NCBI GenBank assembly: GCA_963714015.1
Contig: OY970223.1
Location: forward strand, 1,984,001-2,048,000
DNA length: 64,000 nucleotides
Reading direction: 5' to 3'
DNA from: Vulcanimicrobiota bacterium
Lineage (GTDB): Bacteria; Vulcanimicrobiota; Vulcanimicrobiia; Vulcanimicrobiales; Vulcanimicrobiaceae
This document shows positions 4,394-49,264 of this stretch, piece by piece (the stretch's first letter is position 1; the number at the start of each line of letters is the position of its first letter). The translations under genes were made by a program, and so were the position numbers. The notes below the pieces were generated by a model that did no database searches, had not been told where the DNA came from, and was given only the letters and a program-made list of their open reading frames with translations.

Positions 4394-5059
4394 ATGACGG
4401 AAAGACTGAAAACTCTCGTATACTTGTTCTGCGCGCTGCTTGCAGCGCCGGCCCTGGCGCCGGTTGCGGTCCTTGCCTCGACCGGCGGCGTCCCGGCGAA
4501 CTGCACCGGTTGCGATCTCTCGCACATGGACTTTCAGGGGCGCGACCTGCGCAGCGTGACGTGGACGGGTGTCGACCTGCAAAACGCGGACTTGCGCGGT
4601 GCGGATCTGCGCGGCGCGCATCTCGTCGGCGCCGACATGGAACACGTTCGTATGGCCGGCGCGAAGGTCAACGGAGCCAAACTGGTCGGAGCCGACATGG
4701 AAGACTCGGATCTACGATCGCTCGATTTTACCGGCGCCGATTTGATCGGTACGGACTTCGAACGCAGCAATCTCTCCGGAACCACGTTCGCCGGGGACAA
4801 GATCGTCGGCGCTTCTTTTCGCGACAGTCTCTCGCAAAACGTAAATTTTAGCAATACGACGCTCTGCTTCCGGAATCGCGACGGCCGCGTTGCGTGCAGC
4901 GATTTCCGCGGCGCGGATCTGCGCGGCGCGAACTTCCAAGGCGCCCAAATCTGCGATTCGCACGACGACGAAGACGATCCGGCGCATTGCTGGGCGCTCG
5001 ACGCGGCAACGCTGCGCAGCGAAGGCCACGCCAATCTGGCAGGGGCCCGCGGGATCTAG
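4394..5059 (+). CDS. Secreted pentapeptide-repeat protein
   Basis: Signal peptide (MTERLKTLVYLFCALLAAP..VLA), NCTGCD cap, ADLRG/ADMEH/ADLIG repeats; SD GGGAGA. Confidence 0.92.
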   Translation: MTERLKTLVYLFCALLAAPALAPVAVLASTGGVPANCTGCDLSHMDFQGRDLRSVTWTGVDLQNADLRGADLRGAHLVGADMEHVRMAGAKVNGAKLVGADMEDSDLRSLDFTGADLIGTDFERSNLSGTTFAGDKIVGASFRDSLSQNVNFSNTTLCFRNRDGRVACSDFRGADLRGANFQGAQICDSHDDEDDPAHCWALDAATLRSEGHANLAGARGI

Positions 5060-5101
5060 AATTCCCAGGGACCGGGGCGCTCGCAAGGTAACGTTGGCGG
5101 C

Positions 5102-5855
5102 ATGGTTTCTCGCCCTGCCGCCGCGTTGCTGATCGCCTTAGCCGTCCCCTCGCCCTCGCCCACGCCGCTAAAGACGATAACGCACGTGCGCGCGCAGCGA
5201 TTGTGCATCGGGCTCAAACGTGCGGTCTATCCGGCAGTTGGGCGCGTGCTCCAAGACGACCAGCTGATCGCTCAAAGCCGCCCGTTCTTCCGCGATTACG
5301 TCAAGCAGTCCGCGTCCGGCAATCATAGCGGAGTCGACCTCGACGTTGCACGCCTGGAACGTTACATCACCCCGCTCGTTCAAAATACCAAAGACGCCGA
5401 ATCCTATTTGAACGATTCGGTCTTTCCGCGCGTGCCCGCATCGAGCGGCGATCGCGATCTACTGGCAATTCGGCATGAGTTGCAAGAAGCGATCGCGCAG
5501 CAGAAGCTGGCTTTGAACCTCATCGGCGGCTTTACGGATACGCAGCAACTCGGTGAGTTGCAGCAGGAAGGCGAAGAATACCCCTCCGCTCCCGAAGGAG
5601 AAAGAGGGAGCTTCGCCGCCGCCGCAGCCCGCACCCAGCGAATCACCGAACGAGCTGCTGAACGCGGGCATTCCCAATCCGCAACGCTCGTCCGATCCGC
5701 GCTTCTCCACGACGAATTCCCTGGAAGGCTACAATCCGTTAAACGGCTTCGATCGGCAGATGGATACCTATCAGCAGAAAATCTCCGCAACCGAAGACGG
5801 CATATCGAAGGCGATTTTCAAAGCCGTCACCGAGTGCGGGGGAAAGGCACCGTAG
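5102..5855 (+). CDS. Hypothetical secreted protein (+1 frame break near 5585)
   Basis: Short signal peptide, PSPSPTPLKTI.HV motif and helical body. Frame 5553 supplies a Pro-rich linker and the C-terminus. Confidence 0.6.
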
Positions 5856-5914
5856 CGCCGTGGCATGGCCGTAAAGTTCAGCTTCCGCGTCTTGAAAACG
5901 CTGCAGTTTGACCG

Positions 5915-6364
5915 TCAATCTGCGGGGATTTTCCAAGTAAAGCCGGCGTAGTTTGCCAGTTCGCCGAGCGCGCCGTTCTTTTTGAACGCGCGCCGCCAAA
6001 CCCGCCGGGCATGGGCAACGTAGCGATCCCGATCGCGCCGCGCGCGCAGGGCAACGATATCGGCTTGGCATTTAACGGCCTGTTCTGCGAGCACGATGCA
6101 GTCGTGCGCGCAGCCGAGCTCGTCGGTCATTTGCGAGAGGAACTCCGCGACCGGCTGCAACTGCGGCAACTGTTTCTGAACCGCTCGATTGCAAAGCGAA
6201 GACGCTTGCACGCCAAACGAAAGGCGTGCATGGCTTCGCCGTCTTCGGCGAAAAGTGCGGGCTGAAGCTCCAAACACTCGGCAAACCGGACGCTCAGCAG
6301 CAGTGAAATCGCCTCATCGATACTCTGCGCGCCGTCGAAGCGCAGCGCTCCGTCCCTGCTTCAC
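5915..6364 (-). CDS. CHAD-domain (half) protein, frame-broken; not captured intact in the ORF track
   Basis: Manual translation gives EAMHAFRLACKRLRFAIE, then after a shift near 6175 MTDELGCAHDCIVL. These match the CHAD HxxRxxxKRLRY and LGxxHD motifs. Confidence 0.7.
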
Positions 6365-6790
6365 GGCCGCAGATCCTGCGAAGTGCTCGGCTGATCGGGT
6401 CGCCGGAAGTTTGCGCCGCGCTTTTTTCCGGCGTTTGAGCAGGCGCCGTCGACGGCCTGCAGTTGTTCGCATTCCCGACCGAACGACATCTTCGCGAATA
6501 CGTGCTCCACGCGCTCGCGCAGGACGTCGGCGTCGCGAACTTTGCCCGCCCGCTCGTGCAATTCGTGAACGCGCTCCCGAAACTCGGGAGCAATGCCGGC
6601 GAGAGGCCCGAGATCGTCGAGCGCGGCGCGCAGACGCGCGAGTTGCTTGCGCGCGCTATGCAGCCGTTTCGCCGACCGCGGCTTTTTGCAATAGGCGGCA
6701 AGGGCCTCGACCCGCTTGCTTGACCTGGAAGCGGATGACTTCTTGAGCCCAAATTTCCAGTGCCCGGACTAGGGTTGCGCGGCGTCCACA
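6361..6790 (-). CDS. CHAD-domain (half) protein, frame-broken
   Basis: Manual translation gives KRLHSARKQLARLRAALDDL..ELHERAGKVRDADVL (CHAD HxxR..RLR and G..RD.DV motifs). The start is approximate. Confidence 0.65.
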
Positions 6791-6835
6791 CGGCGATGCT
6801 TCACCGCCCCGGTCCAGGACCCCGCGAAAAGGCTA

Positions 6836-6864
6836 TTGACATCGAACATACGTTCGATTAGGAT
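6836..6864 (+). promoter_or_regulatory. SOS promoter with LexA box (Cheo-type CGAAC-N4-GTTCG) in the -35/-10 spacer
   Basis: TTGACA (6836-6841), 17 nt, TAGGAT (6859-6864). Palindrome ATCGAAC-ATAC-GTTCGAT at 6841-6858 lies directly upstream of imuA. Confidence 0.92.
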
Positions 6865-6873
6865 CGTGGTCCC

Positions 6874-7626
6874 ATGGATGTGCAAACCGATTCCCGACCC
6901 ACCTTCGCGACCCTCAAGGCGGGGCTGGACGTGCGCGCCGCCGGGCGCATCGTGGCGGCTCGAACGGAGGCGTTTTCGACCGGTTTTCCGCAATTGGACC
7001 AGGCGCTGGGAGGCGGGTTTCCGAGAGGCGCCTTGGCTACGCTCGAAGGCGGTCCCAGCTCCGGACGAACGGCGATTCTGGCCGGCGTGCTGGCGCGGGC
7101 GACTCACTGCGGGCTGGCGGCAATCGTCGACGACGGTACGCTCTATCCGCCCGATCTCGAGCGCTCCGGCGTCTGTCTGGATCGCGTGCTCGTCGTGCAG
7201 GCTCAGGGACCCTGCGCAATTGCGCGCTGTACCGACATTTTGCTTCGTTCTCGCGTCTTTGCCGCGGTTGCGATGCCGGCGGTCTTACTGCGCGCAACGG
7301 TCTGGTCGCGGTTGTGCGGGCTCGCGCAAAAAGCCGGAACCGTGCTCGTTGCACTGGGGGCGCATGCTGCGATGGAGCTGGCCTACTTTGCCTCGACGCG
7401 CGTGCGGTGCGCCATCGAACGGGTTTCCTGGTCGCCCGCGTCGGGCGTGCTCCGTGAACTGTCCGGTTATGACGTCTGCGCGCATGTGCTCAAGCATCGG
7501 CGCGCTGCACCGGGCGCCGTTGCCCACATCCGGATCTCGGCAGAAGAAAGCGGCGCGCCTCTAAGGGGTGGACGCGCCGCAGTCCCTGCCGCCCGTCCGC
7601 TTCGCCTGGCGGGGGCAGGAGGGTGA
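6874..7626 (+). CDS. imuA: ImuA-like RecA-fold mutasome accessory protein
   Basis: STGFPQLDQALGGGFPRG..GGPSSGRT degenerate Walker A; first gene of an imuA-imuB-dnaE2 cassette. Confidence 0.85.
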   Translation: MDVQTDSRPTFATLKAGLDVRAAGRIVAARTEAFSTGFPQLDQALGGGFPRGALATLEGGPSSGRTAILAGVLARATHCGLAAIVDDGTLYPPDLERSGVCLDRVLVVQAQGPCAIARCTDILLRSRVFAAVAMPAVLLRATVWSRLCGLAQKAGTVLVALGAHAAMELAYFASTRVRCAIERVSWSPASGVLRELSGYDVCAHVLKHRRAAPGAVAHIRISAEESGAPLRGGRAAVPAARPLRLAGAGG

Positions 7627-42291: not shown

Positions 42292-42311
42292 TTCGCGTGA
42301 GGTTGGGTAAA

Positions 42312-43040
42312 ATGCGCCCGCCCCCTATGCAACAAAACCTTCTGCTGGGTGTGTTGCCGGAGATCGAACGCAGGCGCATCGCCGACTACTGCGAGGTCGT
42401 CCAATTGTCGCCGCGCAGCACGCTGTACGAACCGGATGCTCCGATAAACCACGTCTGGTTTCCGCACTCCGGGGTCTGTTCCACACTGGTGCATGTCGAA
42501 AACGGCGAGGCGGTCGAAATTGGATTGGTCGGGCGGGAAGGGCTGGTGGGACTTCCGCTGGTCCTTGGGGGCAGTACCAATTCGTTCCACGTCATCGTCC
42601 AAGTCGGCGGCTCTGCGACGCGCATCGCCAAGCAGCCGTTCGTCGACGTCGTGCTTGCGCCCGGGCACCCGTTCTGCAAGGGATTGCTCCAGTACGCCAA
42701 TCTTTATGTGTCAAACGTGGCACAAACCGCAGCGTGCAATCGTCTGCACCGGATCGAACAGCGCCTCGCGCGATGGCTGCTCGATCTGCAGGAAAGAACG
42801 GGCGGCGACACGCTTCCGCTGACGCACGAATTTCTGGGCTTGATGGTGGGCGCATACCGTCCCTCCGTTACGAATGCGCTCAAGGCTTTCGAGGAACGTG
42901 AGGTGCTGGAATTGGGGCGCGGCTCGCTGCGCATTCGAAGCCGGGAGAAGCTTTGCGCGGAGGCATGCGACTGCCATGAAGCGATGCAGCGCCGAACCCA
43001 TGCAACGCTGGCGCAGATTCAAGCCCTCGCTGCGGCCTAA
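42312..43040 (+). CDS. Crp/Fnr family transcriptional regulator
   Basis: NLLL..LP, GLVGREG, ACNRLHRIEQRLARWLL, LTHEFLG..RPSVT. Confidence 0.92.
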   Translation: MRPPPMQQNLLLGVLPEIERRRIADYCEVVQLSPRSTLYEPDAPINHVWFPHSGVCSTLVHVENGEAVEIGLVGREGLVGLPLVLGGSTNSFHVIVQVGGSATRIAKQPFVDVVLAPGHPFCKGLLQYANLYVSNVAQTAACNRLHRIEQRLARWLLDLQERTGGDTLPLTHEFLGLMVGAYRPSVTNALKAFEEREVLELGRGSLRIRSREKLCAEACDCHEAMQRRTHATLAQIQALAAA

Positions 43041-43131: not shown

Positions 43132-43872
43132 TTGAACAGCCCGTTGGCGCCTGATTTTAGAGCCAACGCTCTCCTTCGCGCTATGCCGCAGGGTGAAGCG
43201 GAGCGCCTAAGCCGGTACTTCAAAGTTACCGCACTCGTTCAGGGACGGCGGCTTTCCAGCGCCGAGGATTCGCTGACGCATCTTTATTTCCCGATTTCCG
43301 GCGTCGTTTCGCGCGTGGCTCAGTTGCCGTCGGGAGAGACGATCGAAGCGGGCCTGCAAGGAAATGAAGGCGCCGTCGGTTTTCCGCTTGCGCTCGGCGG
43401 AGTATACGGCATCGGCGTGAATCGCGTGCAATTGGCCGGGGAAGCCCTCTCCATTTCGGCTGCCGATTATGAAGAGCACGTTCGCCAACCCGGGGCACCG
43501 CTTCAAGACGCGATGCTGTTATATGCCGATCTGCAGCTGCAAATTCTCACGCATCTTGCTGCGTGCCACGGGCTGCACCGCATCGAACAGCGCCTGAGCC
43601 GTTGCATTCTCTCGCTCAGCGACTGCGCCGGCGCCAACGGGTCAGTCCGCGTCACGCATGAAATGCTCGCTGATTTTTTGGGCGTACATCGCCCCTCGAT
43701 TACCTACGCGCTCCAAGCCTTGGCAGCCGGCGGTTTGGTGACTCTCGAAAGACGGCGCCTGGTGGTGCGGAGCCGCCAAGGTTTAATGGAGCGCTCGTGC
43801 GAGTGCTATGGCGTGCTGCGCGATCTTCGCGAGCGCAGCTTTCGAAAGATCCGCAGCGTAGGAAACGACTAA
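43132..43872 (+). CDS. Crp/Fnr family transcriptional regulator (tandem paralog)
   Basis: NALL..MP, GNEG, ACHGLHRIEQRLSR, VTHEMLA..RPSIT, SCECY. Confidence 0.92.
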   Translation: MNSPLAPDFRANALLRAMPQGEAERLSRYFKVTALVQGRRLSSAEDSLTHLYFPISGVVSRVAQLPSGETIEAGLQGNEGAVGFPLALGGVYGIGVNRVQLAGEALSISAADYEEHVRQPGAPLQDAMLLYADLQLQILTHLAACHGLHRIEQRLSRCILSLSDCAGANGSVRVTHEMLADFLGVHRPSITYALQALAAGGLVTLERRRLVVRSRQGLMERSCECYGVLRDLRERSFRKIRSVGND

Positions 43873-43875
43873 GCC

Positions 43876-45360
43876 CTATTCCGCGGCCGCTACAGGCACT
43901 GCACCGCTTCGGCGCGACGGCCGCATGAAAATGACGAGCGGCGCCGTCACGAAAAATACGATGGCGGAAACCCGGAATAAATAATCGTAGCTGATCACTT
44001 GCGAAGCCACGCCGACGAGCTGATCCAGAACGGCGATTGAGTAGCCGTGGGTCTGCGTCACCCCGGACGCGAGTGCATTTTGCGCGACCGCCTCTTGCCG
44101 CGCCAGCAGCGTCGTGAGGATGGCGATGCCGAAACTGCCGCCGAGCTGCCGCAGCAAGACGTTCACGCCGGTTGCTCCCGCGAGTTCTTCCTTCGGAACC
44201 GCACCGAGCGTAACCGTGGAGAGCGGCACGAATAAGAACCCGAGAGCCAATCCCTGCACGACGCGCGGCCAGAAGACGTCCCAATAACCTGCGTTTTCGT
44301 TCAAGCCGCCCATCCACCACGTCGAGATGCCGAAAATGACCATCCCCACACCGACGAGCAACCGGGGATCGATTTTTCCGAGGATACGTCCGCAGATCAG
44401 CATGCTTATCGCGGTCGCAATCGCGCCGGGCAGCAGCGCCATTCCGGTGTCGAATGCCGTGAATCCCAGCACCATTTGAAAAAATAGCGGCAAGACCAAG
44501 CTCGTTCCGAACAAACCGAAGCCGCTGATGAAGCCGATGACGTTGCCGATCGTAAACGTTCGGAAGCGGAATACGTTTAAATCGACGAGCGGATGCCGGT
44601 CGCGCAGCGATTTGACGATGAACCAGATGACGCCGATTGCGGCGACGATGCTGAGGATCCAGATCGATGTGGACTGATACCAGTCGTCGTGCTGCCCGCG
44701 CTCCAGCACGTACTGCAGCGATGCAAGGCCCGCAGCGAGCAGCGTGAGTCCCCACCAGTCGATGCCGCCCTTCGGCTTTTGCAAGAAGTGCGGATTGGGA
44801 ATGAACATGAGCGTCATCACGAACGCCGCAATGCCGATGGGAATGTTGATGAAGAAGATCAGCGGCCAGGAATAATTGTCGACGATGTAGCCGCCCAGTG
44901 TCGGTCCGATCGCGGGGCCGACCATCGCGCCTAATCCGAAGATCGCCATTGCGGCGCCGCGCTTTTCGGGCGGATACGTTTCGAACAAGATGGCCTGCGC
45001 CGTCGGCTGCAGCGCGCCGCCGCCGAAGCCCTGCAGCACCCGGTAAAAGACGAGCTGCCAGATGCTGGTCGCGGTTCCGCAAAGCAGAGAGGACACCGTG
45101 AAGATCGTGAGGCACGCGGCATAGAAATTTTTTCTTCCGAAATACGCCGTGAGCCAGCCGTTCAGCGGCATCGTGATCACGCTCGCGAGAATATAGCCGG
45201 TCGCAACCCACGAAACTTCGTCGATCGAAGCACCGAGGTTGCCGGCGATGTCGTCCAAAGCTACGTTGACGATCGTGGCGTCGATGATGGCCATGATGAG
45301 CCCAAGCATGACCGTGATCGTGATAAGGGCTACCGGAGCGTTTTGGCGCGCGCGAAACAT
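43876..45360 (-). CDS. DHA2 (EmrB/QacA) MFS efflux permease
   Basis: IDATIVNVAL, RVLQGFGGG, GPAIGPTLGGYI..W..IFFINIPIG; 14-TM pattern. Confidence 0.94.
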   Translation of the reverse strand: MFRARQNAPVALITITVMLGLIMAIIDATIVNVALDDIAGNLGASIDEVSWVATGYILASVITMPLNGWLTAYFGRKNFYAACLTIFTVSSLLCGTATSIWQLVFYRVLQGFGGGALQPTAQAILFETYPPEKRGAAMAIFGLGAMVGPAIGPTLGGYIVDNYSWPLIFFINIPIGIAAFVMTLMFIPNPHFLQKPKGGIDWWGLTLLAAGLASLQYVLERGQHDDWYQSTSIWILSIVAAIGVIWFIVKSLRDRHPLVDLNVFRFRTFTIGNVIGFISGFGLFGTSLVLPLFFQMVLGFTAFDTGMALLPGAIATAISMLICGRILGKIDPRLLVGVGMVIFGISTWWMGGLNENAGYWDVFWPRVVQGLALGFLFVPLSTVTLGAVPKEELAGATGVNVLLRQLGGSFGIAILTTLLARQEAVAQNALASGVTQTHGYSIAVLDQLVGVASQVISYDYLFRVSAIVFFVTAPLVIFMRPSRRSGAVPVAAAE

Positions 45361-45503: not shown

Positions 45504-45564
45504 GAGCTAATATTAGCATGCGGCGGCTGGGCGGAGAATTAAGGCGATTGCCTAAGCATTAGGC

Positions 45565-47454
45565 GTGCCGAACCGATTTGTTCGCCTCGCCTATTTGCTT
45601 GCCGCCGTGAGCCTGCTTTTCCTTGGAGCAGCGAGCGCCGCGCCGGCCGACACCGATGAAACGACGCAAGGCGTCAACCCCAGTACCGTCGGCATGCAGC
45701 CCATTACCGGTCCGATTCCGGTCGTCACGCCGGCTCCCGGCGAATCGCGTCTGACCCGGCGCGAGGACGGAACGTACGCCGCGGTTCCGCTGGTTCAGGG
45801 CAGGACGCGGACGTTCCATTTGGTCGAACGCGACGCGCCGTGGACACTGCAACCGGGCTTGACGGTGATGGCCAAAACCTACAACGGTGTAGTGCCCGGC
45901 CCGACGCTGGTGGTGCACGAAGGCGATCGCGTCGTCATCGACTACACCAACTCGCAGAATGTTCCCGATACGATTCACCTGCACGGGATTCACGGCATCC
46001 CCATTCAGATGGACGGCGTAGCGGGAATCTCTCAACCGCTGGTTCAGAACGGCGGTGCTTACCGCTACGCGTTTACCGCCGATCGATCCGGAACGTTCAT
46101 TTACCATTCGCACGACAACGAAGAGATGGTCAATAGCGGACTTTACGGAGCGATCGTCGTTTTGCCCACGCATCCTACGCCGCAGGAGCGGGCGGATCGC
46201 GATTATGTGGAGATGCTCTCGTCGTGGACGATTCAGAGCTTAAGTGAGAATCATTTCACGATTAACGGTAAAGAGTATCCGGCGACGGCCCCGATTACCG
46301 TGCGCAAGGGACAGCGCGTGAGAATCCGCTGGATCAACATGTCCGGCGAGAATTTTCATACGATGCATACGCACGGGCATTATCAGACGGTCATCGCGCG
46401 AGACGCCCAGCCGGTGACCTACCGCGACGTCGAAGACACGGTCATGCTCGGGCCGGGACAGCGCGTCGACGTAATCGTCGACGCCAACCAAAGCCCGGGA
46501 AATTGGCTGGTGCATTGTCACGTTCTGGATCACACCGAAGACAACATGGGCATGCCGGACGGCTTGGTAACCGTAATCCACTACGAAGGCACTCCGAACG
46601 ACGCTGCCGCGATGAACAACGTCATGCGCGCGCGTTTGCCGAGCTTCGGCAACACCGCCCGATCGCTTTCGTTCGGATTGACGGTACTGCTTGGAGCGAT
46701 CGCGGGCTTCACGATATTTCTGGGTTTGCCGATCGCCCGGATGCGTAACGTCTCACCCAACACGATCGGCGCTCTAAACGCGATAGCCATCGGAATCCTA
46801 GCCTACCTGGTCGTCGAGATTGCCGGCAATGCCACCGCCACGATCGCCAACGCCGTTCACCAGGTGCATGGAGGCGGGGGATCTTCGGGGACGGTGGCGA
46901 TGCTGTCCGCTGCGTACGTCGCCGGATTCTTCGCGGGCCTCGTCGGACTGGGAAGCCTCGCGGCGAAGATCAGCAAACGCGCCGCATCGGAAACGCACGA
47001 TCCGTACATGCTCGCGGCAGTTATCGCGATAGGCATCGGCGCGCATAACTTTGCGGAAGGGTTGGCGATCGGCGCCTCGGCCGCGTCAGGCGCGACGGCG
47101 ATTGCCGTCGGCTTGATCGTCGGTTTCGGTTTGCACAACGCAACTGAGGGCTTCGGTATTGCGGCGCCGCTGGCGGGCCGGGTCATTCCACGGCGCCGCT
47201 TGCTGCTGCTCGCCGGACTGGTTGCCGGCGGCCCCACCTTTCTTGGAACCGTCATCGGGTACGCGTTCCAATCTCCGCTGCTCTCGGTGCTTTTCTTGGC
47301 CACTGCTACCGGTGCGCTGCTCTTCGTCATCGGCGAGCTCTGGAGTGTCTTGCGCCGCAGCCCCGGCCTGACCGCGGCGATGACGTCGGCGTTAGCTTGC
47401 GGATTTTTCATCGCGCTGGCTACGGAACTGCTCCTGGACGTTTACGGCGGCTAG
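45565..47454 (+). CDS. Two-domain multicopper oxidase fused to a ZIP (ZupT-like) metal transporter
   Basis: Signal peptide; Cu motifs IHLHG, YHSH, HTMHTHGH and HCHVLDH..M; then 8-TM ZIP domain with HNFAEG and HNATEG; one uninterrupted 629-aa ORF. Confidence 0.9.
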   Translation: MPNRFVRLAYLLAAVSLLFLGAASAAPADTDETTQGVNPSTVGMQPITGPIPVVTPAPGESRLTRREDGTYAAVPLVQGRTRTFHLVERDAPWTLQPGLTVMAKTYNGVVPGPTLVVHEGDRVVIDYTNSQNVPDTIHLHGIHGIPIQMDGVAGISQPLVQNGGAYRYAFTADRSGTFIYHSHDNEEMVNSGLYGAIVVLPTHPTPQERADRDYVEMLSSWTIQSLSENHFTINGKEYPATAPITVRKGQRVRIRWINMSGENFHTMHTHGHYQTVIARDAQPVTYRDVEDTVMLGPGQRVDVIVDANQSPGNWLVHCHVLDHTEDNMGMPDGLVTVIHYEGTPNDAAAMNNVMRARLPSFGNTARSLSFGLTVLLGAIAGFTIFLGLPIARMRNVSPNTIGALNAIAIGILAYLVVEIAGNATATIANAVHQVHGGGGSSGTVAMLSAAYVAGFFAGLVGLGSLAAKISKRAASETHDPYMLAAVIAIGIGAHNFAEGLAIGASAASGATAIAVGLIVGFGLHNATEGFGIAAPLAGRVIPRRRLLLLAGLVAGGPTFLGTVIGYAFQSPLLSVLFLATATGALLFVIGELWSVLRRSPGLTAAMTSALACGFFIALATELLLDVYGG

Positions 47455-47564
47455 CGCTTGCGGGAAATCACGTTTCCCGCGCCTCGCGCGCTATGGTCCT
47501 ACGTGGGCGTGGCGGCGAGAAAGTGAGGGCCCTGTTGCGGAAACTTGGGAACAATCGTGGCGCT

Positions 47565-48233
47565 ATGAAAATCGGTATCGTAGGTTCGGGAGACATCGGC
47601 GGAACGCTTGGACGGTTGTGGGCCAAGGCGGGACACCAAGTGTATTACAGCTTTTCGCACGACGAAGGCAAGCTCGAGCGGCTCGCGGCCGATTCGGGCA
47701 ACGGTTCCAAAGCAGTGAGCGCGTATGATGCGGTCCGCTGCGCGGAAGTGGTGCTTTTTTCACCTCCGTGGACGGCGCAAGACGAAGCGATAAAGCAGAT
47801 GGGCCGCTTCGAGGGGCAAATCGTCATCGATACGACCAATCCTTACGACGAGAACATGAACGTGCAGACGTTCTCGGACAAGGACTCCTCAAGCGAACAT
47901 ATCGAGCGCAAGTTGCCCGGAGCGAAGGTGATCAAAGCATTCAACACGCTCAAGGACGAGACGCTGGCATCGCGCACCGGCCAAGGATTGGTGATTTTTC
48001 TTGCGGGTAACCATCCCGCGGTGAAGTCCAATGAGGTCTCGGAACTGATCCGCGACGCGGGTTTCGTTCCGTTCGACGTCGGGCCGCTGCACGAAGGCAA
48101 GAAACAAGAGCCCAACACGGATCGTTACCTGAAAGAGCTGACTGCGGAGCAGGCCGAACGTCTGGTCAACGGAACCACCGCTAAAACCGAGAAGGGCGAG
48201 ATTCGCACCGGGAACAGAGCGGCCGTCTCTTAG
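47565..48233 (+). CDS. NADP oxidoreductase (F420-dependent NADP oxidoreductase family)
   Basis: MKIGIVGSGDIGG Rossmann motif, IDTTNP, VIKAFNT. Confidence 0.88.
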   Translation: MKIGIVGSGDIGGTLGRLWAKAGHQVYYSFSHDEGKLERLAADSGNGSKAVSAYDAVRCAEVVLFSPPWTAQDEAIKQMGRFEGQIVIDTTNPYDENMNVQTFSDKDSSSEHIERKLPGAKVIKAFNTLKDETLASRTGQGLVIFLAGNHPAVKSNEVSELIRDAGFVPFDVGPLHEGKKQEPNTDRYLKELTAEQAERLVNGTTAKTEKGEIRTGNRAAVS

Positions 48234-48301: not shown

Positions 48302-49264
48302 ATGAGCCGCATGAGCACGACGCACCCGAAGGGGCAGTTTCCGGCGGAGCAATCGGAGCAGGGCGAATTCGTCCGCCAGGGCGATGCATTCCGCAGATGG
48401 ATACGCGCCGACGGAAGCGGCGATTTTCCCGCCGAAGCGGGCCGCTACCACCTCTACGTTTCATTGGCATGTCCGTGGGCGCACCGGACGGTTATCGTTC
48501 GAAAGATCAAGCGCCTGGAGCAGGCAATTGGGATGACGGTCCTCGACCCCGTGCGCGACGACTTGGGTTGGGCGTTTCGCGAAGTTCCCGGCGCTTCGCG
48601 CGACCCGCTCAACGGCTTTTCTTACCTGAGCGATGCGTACCGCGTCACGGATCCGGATTATCGCGGGCGCGTGACGGTACCGGTGCTTTGGGACAAGCAG
48701 ACCAGGCAAATCGTCAGCAACTCGGACGACGACATCATGCGCATGTTCGAAACGGAGTTCGACGCGTTTGGCGATGCATCGCCGGAGCTTTACCCCGCCC
48801 CATACCGGGCGGAGATCGACGCGATGAACGAATGGATCTACGAGACGTTCAACAACGGCGTGTATCGCGCCGGATTCGCCACGACGCAGCACGTGTACGA
48901 AAAAGCCGCGTATGAAGTATTCCAAACTCTTGACAAACTGGAGCAACGGCTCGGAGATCGCCGTTACTTGATCGACGCGCGGCCCGTCGAAACGGACTGG
49001 CGCGCGTTCGTGACGCTGATTCGCTTTGACGCCGTGTACTTCGGACATTTCAAGTGCAACCTGCGCCGGATCGTCGACTATCCCAGCCTTTGGGGTTATC
49101 TGCGCGACCTCTATCAGTACGACGGCGTAGCGGACACGGTGAATTTCGATCACATCAAACGTCACTACTACTATACGCATGACGACATCAACCCGACTCG
49201 CATCGTGCCGATCGGTCCCGAACTGGATCTAACGTCGCCCCACGGCCGCGAGCGTCTGCTCTAA
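48302..49264 (+). CDS. Glutathionyl-hydroquinone reductase (YqjG-like GST)
   Basis: YHLYVSLACPWAHR, TVPVLWD, NNGVYRAGFA, RFDAVY..HFKCN, HIKRHYY. Confidence 0.93.
   Translation: MSRMSTTHPKGQFPAEQSEQGEFVRQGDAFRRWIRADGSGDFPAEAGRYHLYVSLACPWAHRTVIVRKIKRLEQAIGMTVLDPVRDDLGWAFREVPGASRDPLNGFSYLSDAYRVTDPDYRGRVTVPVLWDKQTRQIVSNSDDDIMRMFETEFDAFGDASPELYPAPYRAEIDAMNEWIYETFNNGVYRAGFATTQHVYEKAAYEVFQTLDKLEQRLGDRRYLIDARPVETDWRAFVTLIRFDAVYFGHFKCNLRRIVDYPSLWGYLRDLYQYDGVADTVNFDHIKRHYYYTHDDINPTRIVPIGPELDLTSPHGRERLL

Follow-up and report, generated by a model that had tools for sequence, protein, structure and literature searches.

Fet3p/Ftr1p of yeast and the bacterial EfeUOB and FetMP each pair a membrane permease physically with a copper oxidase or cupredoxin that lies outside the cytoplasm, and each of these systems is induced by iron shortage. 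To our knowledge, oxidase-coupled metal uptake is known only with permeases of the Ftr1/EfeU type. The ZIP transporters, a family of key importance for zinc and iron in humans, are regarded as working by themselves, with divalent ions as their substrates. In ammonia-oxidizing archaea a two-domain multicopper oxidase (MCO), MCO1, adjoins a ZIP permease, and the pair has been proposed to serve copper uptake (PMC7785015; PMC5817080; PMC5767755), a proposal that the same three papers trace to Kerou 2016. Here we describe a gene that encodes both activities in a single polypeptide, found in a 64,000-nt stretch (“the window”; contig OY970223.1, positions 1,984,001 to 2,048,000) of the genome of a Vulcanimicrobiota bacterium, a soil-dweller assigned to Eremiobacterota (assembly GCA_963714015.1). 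Sequence features and structural models support its product being a membrane-tethered, extracytoplasmic two-domain MCO covalently joined to a ZIP permease. The reading that we rank first, with a probability of roughly 45%, is that of an iron-regulated, oxidase-coupled metal importer, similar in principle to Fet3p/Ftr1p but working with a ZIP permease; it takes this place because the regulatory evidence points to iron.

The likeness to the iron systems lies in the general plan, and would extend to induction by iron shortage, which for the fusion is suggested by IdeR-type control; a further likeness to EfeUOB is the EfeO-like cupredoxin of one relative, P0248. The parts, however, differ. The permease is a ZIP and not of the Ftr1/EfeU type with its REXXE motifs, the oxidase is a two-domain MCO, predicted to be trimeric, as against a three-domain one, and both parts form one polypeptide; given the ZIP permease and the lack of an FTR1 gene in the genome, the fusion is not a member of the Fet3p/Ftr1p family. 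With the archaeal pair it shares a two-domain MCO linked to a ZIP permease, a proposed coupling of oxidation to uptake and the want of any characterization, but the archaeal components are separate genes for which copper uptake was proposed, whereas the fusion is a single gene. A preliminary description of the window, made from the sequence alone, had known of no characterized example: our full-text literature searches likewise found no characterized MCO-ZIP fusion, although the split archaeal precedent is in print.

The MCO-ZIP fusion is real and not an artefact of assembly. The source genome is a single contig of 3.56 Mb, in which the fusion gene is single-copy and contains the sole ZIP. The preliminary description had named two separate genes in all relatives as a result that would speak against a fusion; uninterrupted homologues are found instead in many independent assemblies, and the search for combined Cu-oxidase and Zip architectures that it had suggested returned hundreds of unbroken fusion homologues in Eremiobacterota. 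Among the best 120 of 951 database matches, taken from 8000 scored candidates, every protein is 528–674 aa long; 109 contain both the MCO and the Zip Pfam families, and in the remaining 11 nothing but the weak Zip match is missing. The named sources of these relatives are Candidatus Baltobacteraceae, Eremiobacteraeota, Elarobacter, Rubrimentiphilum and Aquilonibacter, and in the databases they bear unspecific labels, for example “multicopper oxidase domain-containing protein” or “zinc transporter ZupT.” The ZIP domain is matched at E ≤ 1e-10 by 737 clusters longer than 472 aa, and at the same threshold 290 of 401 sampled genomes of the phylum (12 unpublished genomes included) contain a match; those of low significance (E 1e-11 to 1e-27) are probably MCO-only paralogues. 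The best 150 listed genome matches cover almost the whole protein, and 148 run without a stop codon. The chance that a sequencing or assembly error joined two genes is vanishingly small, given the single-contig genome, the same unbroken architecture in hundreds of independent assemblies and a linker that is itself conserved; we found no point in favor of such an error, and broken relatives are few: one locus (L023, 2848–4816) is split into overlapping frames of 256 and 419 aa, and two genomes (G396, contig C320; G122, contig C4) show one in-frame stop each.

The product of 629 aa derives from a single unbroken open reading frame (ORF) with an in-frame TAA 9 nt 5′ of the start codon; the architecture that had been read from the letters alone, namely a continuous oxidase-ZIP frame with a signal peptide, a linker of about 25 aa (22 aa by our delimitation) and a complete ZIP domain with two HN..EG motifs, is borne out in full (Table 1). 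The signal peptide, of the Sec type, has its hydropathy peak at residues 8–26, where the AlphaFold model places a helix at 4–22; residues 24–39 of the segment that follows have a predicted local distance difference test score (pLDDT) below 50. Pfam recognizes Cu-oxidase_3 at residues 94–201 (E 2e-30) and Cu-oxidase_2 at residues 228–330 (E 1e-25). Among solved structures, the oxidase part is closest to two two-domain laccases, mgLAC (2zwn, E 2.9e-51) and the Nitrosomonas blue copper oxidase (3g5w), which are also its best fold matches (Foldseek E 1.8e-25 for 2zwn; TM-scores of 0.76–0.78 on the target) and are trimers with trinuclear clusters at the interfaces. Unlike the fusion, both are soluble and without a transporter, and in 2zwn the type-1 Cys is in domain 1 (HCH) with HDH in domain 2, an order reversed in the fusion (HSH, then HCH). 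We take the latter arrangement to be that of Streptomyces SLAC.

By Pfam alone, membership of the ZIP family is marginal (PF02535, residues 475–588): with the cut-off at 35.1 bits, the whole protein scores 31.7 and the isolated C-terminal 279 aa score 36.6. It is secure nonetheless, because a profile built from the fusion's ZIP domain and 18 stand-alone relatives (261 positions) matches the solved BbZIP structures 5tsa and 8ght at E 2e-11 over positions 8–251. Hydropathy and the AlphaFold model agree on the signal helix and eight membrane helices, and the Arg/Lys-rich ZIP loops mark the cytoplasmic side, which puts the ZIP N-terminus, and hence the oxidase, outside the cell. With ZupT/GufA-type ZIPs and BbZIP (5tsa) the domain has in common its length of about 260 aa, its eight helices and HNxxEG-type motifs in helices 4 and 5; the subfamily to which it belongs differs by having HN in helix 5 where BbZIP has QD, by the lack of a His-rich cytoplasmic loop and by its repeated fusion to redox domains on the outside.

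Conservation was followed in an alignment of 123 fusions, 119 from the clade of the window (clade I) and four from a sister clade (clade II). The copper ligands H138, H140, H181, H183, H265, H268, H270, H317, C318, H319 and H323 are invariant in 122–123 of 123, and position 182 is Ser or Thr in every sequence, so that domain 1 has no type-1 site; motifs and alignment thus uphold the earlier statement that all trinuclear His are present and the type-1 site is confined to domain 2. Of the HCH..H..M pattern given for that site, HCH and H323 stand, but the Met, M328, is not conserved as an axial ligand (Q 46, M 18, S 16, A 16 and T 12 of 123). From the alignment, likelier axial positions are M330 (93 of 123) or the invariant L334, which is aligned with the PGG[M/L] position of related MCOs. 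Beside the exposed type-1 His, domain 2 has HCH at residues 317–319 and an acidic cluster of D322, E325 and D326, conserved in 117–122 of 123; clade II has HMMN there instead. A ferroxidase site of the Fet3p kind has carboxylates beside the type-1 His ligands; the acidic cluster of clade I may be a counterpart of it, at positions where clade II has MMN. In the linker, M350 is present in 122 and M354 in 119 of the 123 fusions, and M357 in 79 with His in 23 more; the clade II linker is Met-rich as well. The ZIP residues N405, H494, N495, E498, H524, N525, E528 and E591 are invariant or nearly so.

For three copies of residues 60–345 an MCO homotrimer is predicted with a score of 0.95 (best control 0.00), a value that is reached by 20 of 30 proteins solved as one-chain pairs and by 1 of 23 solved as single chains. 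Contacts agree between runs to at least 98% with partner pLDDT of at least 93, and in the modelled trimer H138 and H140 face H268 and H270 across the interface between neighboring copies, as in solved two-domain MCOs; memory of, or likeness to, those solved trimers may account for the pass. Three MCO domains imply three ZIP domains, and so three pores, per complex. The preliminary description had pointed to a mismatch between trimeric two-domain MCOs and the usually dimeric ZIPs: the mismatch is no obstacle to the predicted MCO trimer, with three ZIPs per complex as its consequence. The full-length AlphaFold model was rejected as a picture of how the oxidase sits on the ZIP (predicted TM-score, pTM, 0.54; tether pLDDT < 50).

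The regulatory evidence begins at the start codon, which is overlapped by the palindrome-like sequence TTAGGCGTGCCGAA. This sequence is invariant in 12 of 12 close relatives, and a palindrome with a score of 10–12 out of 12 is found at the same place in 8 of 8 further clade-I loci, other genera included, although some of the clade-I loci are the same genomes counted via two routes. A score of 10 or more is reached by 0.4% of random 420-nt pieces of the genome, and the whole 3.56 Mb contain five sites with a score of at least 11. The clade II fusions have a DtxR-family gene on the same strand that adjoins or overlaps their start, both in three loci (L026, L031 and L041) and in 9 of 9 genomes, from nine genera, of the sister family; as the sequence of L117 is that of L031, the distinct clade II loci number 11. 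The regulators carry EACRLEH in 9 of 9 sister-family genomes and NVEMYLK in 8 of 9 (that of L122 is not matched by the pattern), and both motifs in all three of L026, L031 and L041; the two motifs align to Met10 and Cys102 of DtxR/IdeR. According to a review of IdeR (PMC10317159), sulfur ligands of this Met10/Cys102 type raise selectivity for Fe2+, MntR having Asp/Asn and Glu at these positions, and IdeR reads one CCTAA repeat per subunit. A TTAGG-N4-CCTAA palindrome lies upstream of 10 of 10 distinct clade II operons for which there is sequence, often or usually with a second, weaker copy 22–23 bp further upstream. TTAGGCGTGCCGAA matches these sites upstream of the dtxR-fusion operons and is, on this likeness, a candidate operator. 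The evidence points to control by a repressor of the DtxR/IdeR, iron-sensing type, and for this reason iron is favored as the metal.

Stand-alone relatives, essentially the 68 loci with a ZIP ORF shorter than 400 aa, have a DtxR-family neighbor in nine cases, mostly with Asp/Glu-type (Mn-like) residues, which places the ZIP subfamily as a whole in Fe/Mn regulons. The sole perfect copy of the palindrome in the genome, TTAGGCGTGCCTAA (G000:C1:719419-719432; L105:1501-1514), directly precedes an ORF of 100 aa that has a single membrane helix and lacks a Pfam match; this small membrane protein could be a second member of the same regulon.

Table 1. The fusion gene, the parts of its product and the candidate operator, by position in the window.
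Feature	Position	Strand	Remarks
MCO-ZIP fusion gene, complete	45565..47454	+	629 codons plus stop; GTG start
Sec-type signal peptide, residues 1–25	45565..45639	+	Positive n-region, hydrophobic core, ASA; no twin-arginine
Extended N-terminal segment, residues 26–80	45640..45804	+	Partly disordered; E60 and D68 conserved
Cupredoxin domain 1, residues 81–205	45805..46179	+	HLH 138–140 and HSH 181–183, ligands of the trinuclear cluster; type-1 Cys absent
Cupredoxin domain 2, residues 206–343	46180..46593	+	HTMHTH 265–270; type-1 site H265, C318, H323
Met-rich linker, residues 344–365 (22 aa)	46594..46659	+	Consensus AAMNxAMRxM(L/M)P; helix 349–357, then disordered tether 357–366
ZIP domain, residues 366–629	46660..47451	+	Eight membrane helices; HNFAEG 494–499 (nt 47044–47061), HNATEG 524–529 (nt 47134–47151)
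Candidate DtxR/IdeR-type operator TTAGGCGTGCCGAA	45559..45572	+	14 bp, palindrome-like; overlaps the GTG; two inverted CCTAA-type half-sites

The wider ZIP subfamily offers a second line of evidence. Relatives were clustered at 50% (12,535 matches) and their architectures read from Pfam scans, and the subfamily proved to be repeatedly linked to redox domains on the outside, which counts in favor of the iron importer. In the reverse order, a ZIP is followed by a two-domain MCO in P0126, P0131 and L067, the last from a Deinococcales genome; a cupredoxin follows the ZIP in P0243, P0229 and P0248, the last bearing a blue-copper site (C-x4-H-x4-M) and matching the beginning of EfeO (E 5.6e-7), and a cytochrome c follows it in P0190. 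An MCO at either end of related ZIPs fits the position of both ZIP termini outside the cell. In the MCO tree, the clade of the window, clade II and P0126 form one group (Shimodaira–Hasegawa-like approximate likelihood ratio test, SH-aLRT, 98), and L067 and P0131 fall into a separate one (SH-aLRT 100); by these trees there were at least two, and probably three, independent fusion events. Clades I and II are separated in the ZIP tree, but an approximately unbiased (AU) test does not reject one clade (p 0.126) and the MCO tree keeps the two together, and for these reasons the MCO-ZIP order may have a single origin. Among the 68 stand-alone loci no separate MCO ORF lies within about 4 kb of the ZIP, so that the split neighbors for which the preliminary description had proposed a search did not appear, and neither a cupredoxin nor a cytochrome c is found among the 256 nearest ORFs of the stand-alone loci.

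Two proteins of this set, P0229 and P0269, share a conserved module of about 240 aa (residues ~350–593) behind the ZIP and cupredoxin-like domain, for which Pfam, NCBIfam, the PDB and the Atlas gave no family match; its assignment as an EfeO M75 domain was rejected, as PDB, NCBIfam and Atlas lent it no support (best score 0.77, the level of chance).

All fusions appear to follow a common logic, in which a one-electron redox centre is held at the outer mouth of a ZIP. It is a tentative but quite conceivable extension that the whole prokaryotic subfamily consists of “redox-ZIPs,” in which an attached MCO, blue-copper cupredoxin or cytochrome c ties import to the gain or loss of one electron by the metal at the mouth of the pore. 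The oxidase-permease principle would then have been invented a second time, independently, in the MCO-ZIP trimer. If this were so, the ZIP could accept Fe(III), or fresh Cu(II), by direct hand-off from the oxidase, and the enigmatic archaeal MCO1-ZIP pair would be explained.

For the fusion in the window, the iron-regulated importer can be pictured as follows. By its sequence and the models, the protein is exported through Sec and holds its MCO outside the cell on a flexible, Met-rich tether ahead of ZIP helix 1; the predicted homotrimer, needed to build the trinuclear clusters, would join three ZIP pores in one complex. Scarcity of the sensed metal, most likely iron, would de-repress the gene, and the oxidase would oxidize a metal ion with O2 at the acidic patch beside the type-1 copper and hand it to the attached ZIP for import. 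The tether may capture Cu(I) and so load the apo-oxidase that emerges from Sec. The ferroxidase-permease principle known from Fet3p/Ftr1p and EfeUOB would then have arisen here independently, a ZIP taking the place of the Ftr1-type permease. The genome fits such a role in that FTR1-family permeases (PF03239) have no match (completeness 89.6%) and no convincing FeoB is present.

Several observations weigh against iron. A ferroxidase yields Fe(III), and known ZIPs carry divalent ions; we know of none for Fe(III). Met-rich segments usually mark the handling of Cu(I), as in CueO and Ctr1, and not of iron, and a Met-rich linker is found in both clades, with HMMN beside the type-1 His in clade II. 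CueO of E. coli, a periplasmic MCO, shares with the fusion a Met-rich segment near the type-1 site, but has three domains, leaves the cytoplasm through Tat and serves detoxification as a soluble enzyme with no link to an importer. As to regulation, no regulator adjoins the fusion gene in the window, and the genome's only DtxR homologue, at a distance of 1.26 Mb, has Glu in place of Met10 and a Cys at the position of Cys102. Neither the classical 19-bp IdeR box (TTAGGTTAGSCTAACCTAA) nor a Fur box has a match in the window at up to 3 mismatches. A search of the genome revealed no copy of the palindrome close to dtxR, znuA or any of the three NRAMP genes, and for that reason we draw no regulon. 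The orientation of the oxidase relative to the ZIP, finally, is not confidently predicted.

The main rival, and a serious one even though we hold it to be unlikely, is an importer of copper. Cu(I) would be bound by the Met-rich tether and by the site close to the type-1 copper, the MCO would convert it to Cu(II), and the ZIP would import the divalent ion, as has been proposed in print for the archaeal MCO1-ZIP pair. No other scheme would give the oxidase a divalent product, as suits a ZIP, and this one would account for the conservation of M350 and M354 in the linker, for HMMN by the type-1 His of clade II and for the mixed Asp/Glu/Met surroundings of that His in clade I; a stand-alone relative (L042) lies beside PCuAC and SCO1 copper chaperones. 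However, no copper regulator of the CsoR, CueR or CopY type was seen at the loci examined, and in the sister clade the fusion shares its operon with a DtxR/IdeR repressor of the Fe type at 11 of 11 distinct loci. The archaeal parallel cuts both ways. PMC7785015 reports that MCO1 and the adjoining ZIP (NVIE_000590) of N. viennensis rise under copper limitation (log2 0.81 and 1.33). In the ZIP tree, archaeal ZIPs fall inside the same subfamily as the fusion. On the other side, the archaeal MCOs within reach are distant (E 7e-19 to 8e-6), and the adjacency of MCO1 and ZIP was not seen in the five archaeal genomes examined, a set outside the N. viennensis genes named in PMC7785015, in which archaeal MCO matches were weak only; the archaeal ZIPs examined adjoin PurP genes and not an MCO (L055 and L069, both unpublished genomes, and likewise L073 and L075). 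Literature searches on the archaeal pair returned genome and transcriptome papers only.

Two further readings rank below iron and copper. The ZIP might import Mn(II), Zn(II) or Fe(II) while the oxidase guards the pore mouth by clearing reduced ions that compete or are toxic, namely surplus Fe(II) or Cu(I). Such a role would suit a Met-rich trap for Cu(I) at the entrance, and would agree with the Mn-type DtxR regulators beside stand-alone relatives and the position of the ZIP as the only one in the genome. We think this improbable, since three NRAMP genes and one ZnuA gene are already present, the regulators linked to fused forms are Fe-type and not Mn-type, and repeated fusion to single-electron carriers such as cytochrome c would be left unexplained. 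Slightly more doubtful still is a laccase reading, in which the ZIP mainly anchors, or supplies copper to, a surface oxidase acting on organic substrates. Its closest solved structures being two-domain laccases, the oxidase part agrees with such a role, and other MCOs of the group are fused to unrelated membrane or surface domains (DUF4396 in P0170). The metal-site residues of the ZIP, however, are all invariant in 123 of 123 fusions, a constancy for which a simple anchor would have no need, and neither the recurrence of the same ZIP subfamily with different redox partners nor control by a metal-sensing repressor would be expected of one. The iron-regulated importer thus keeps its first place. 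A redox-coupled metal transport device, as the preliminary description had proposed, is accordingly still the best reading; the fusion and its anatomy are conserved and the function stays conjectural, and of the options which it had set out as equals (copper import, screening for Zn or Mn, and export of Mn or Fe) none keeps that standing, as iron uptake is favored instead, with copper as the rival.

The conservation of MCO-ZIP across a little-known soil phylum, together with the reverse-order, cupredoxin and cytochrome c fusions, indicates that the two activities work together. The fusion would be a single-gene system in which the coupling of oxidase and permease becomes testable, and an experimental handle on the MCO1-ZIP hypothesis of ammonia-oxidizing archaea; it is also relevant to the way in which Eremiobacterota acquire iron or copper where soils are acidic and cold.

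A number of minor observations concern relatives and the surroundings of the gene. P0170 (659 aa) has an N-terminal DUF4396 and a related two-domain MCO at its C-terminus. In L042, from a Chloroflexia genome, the stand-alone ZIP is followed by the PCuAC and SCO1/SenC genes at 4928–5392 and 5352–7031. The single ZnuA-family match in the genome of the window (G000:C1:1211778-1212544) is spread over frames of 226 and 149 aa, and may reflect a frameshift or a broken gene. No sigma-70 consensus promoter was found, and an Rfam scan around the gene start gave matches at the level of chance only; the predicted transcript is leaderless, with its first nucleotides at the GTG within the palindrome. An inverted repeat at 45560–45593, with 14-nt arms (86% complementary) and a 6-nt loop, covers the start codon and codons 6–10; its 5′ arm is the invariant palindrome, and a conserved RNA hairpin is doubtful because the 3′ arm varies among relatives without compensating changes. 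Upstream in the window are two tandem Crp/Fnr-family regulator genes (42297–43040 and 43132–43872) and, divergent from the fusion gene on the minus strand, a gene for a major facilitator superfamily transporter (43876–45360). Downstream, on the same strand as the fusion, follow an F420_oxidored-family NADP oxidoreductase (47397–48233) and a glutathione S-transferase (48302–49264). Both of these downstream genes recur in most close relatives (L006, L011, L012, L015, L016 and L018) but not in distant clade-I loci, and being common to close relatives only they are not counted as part of the system.

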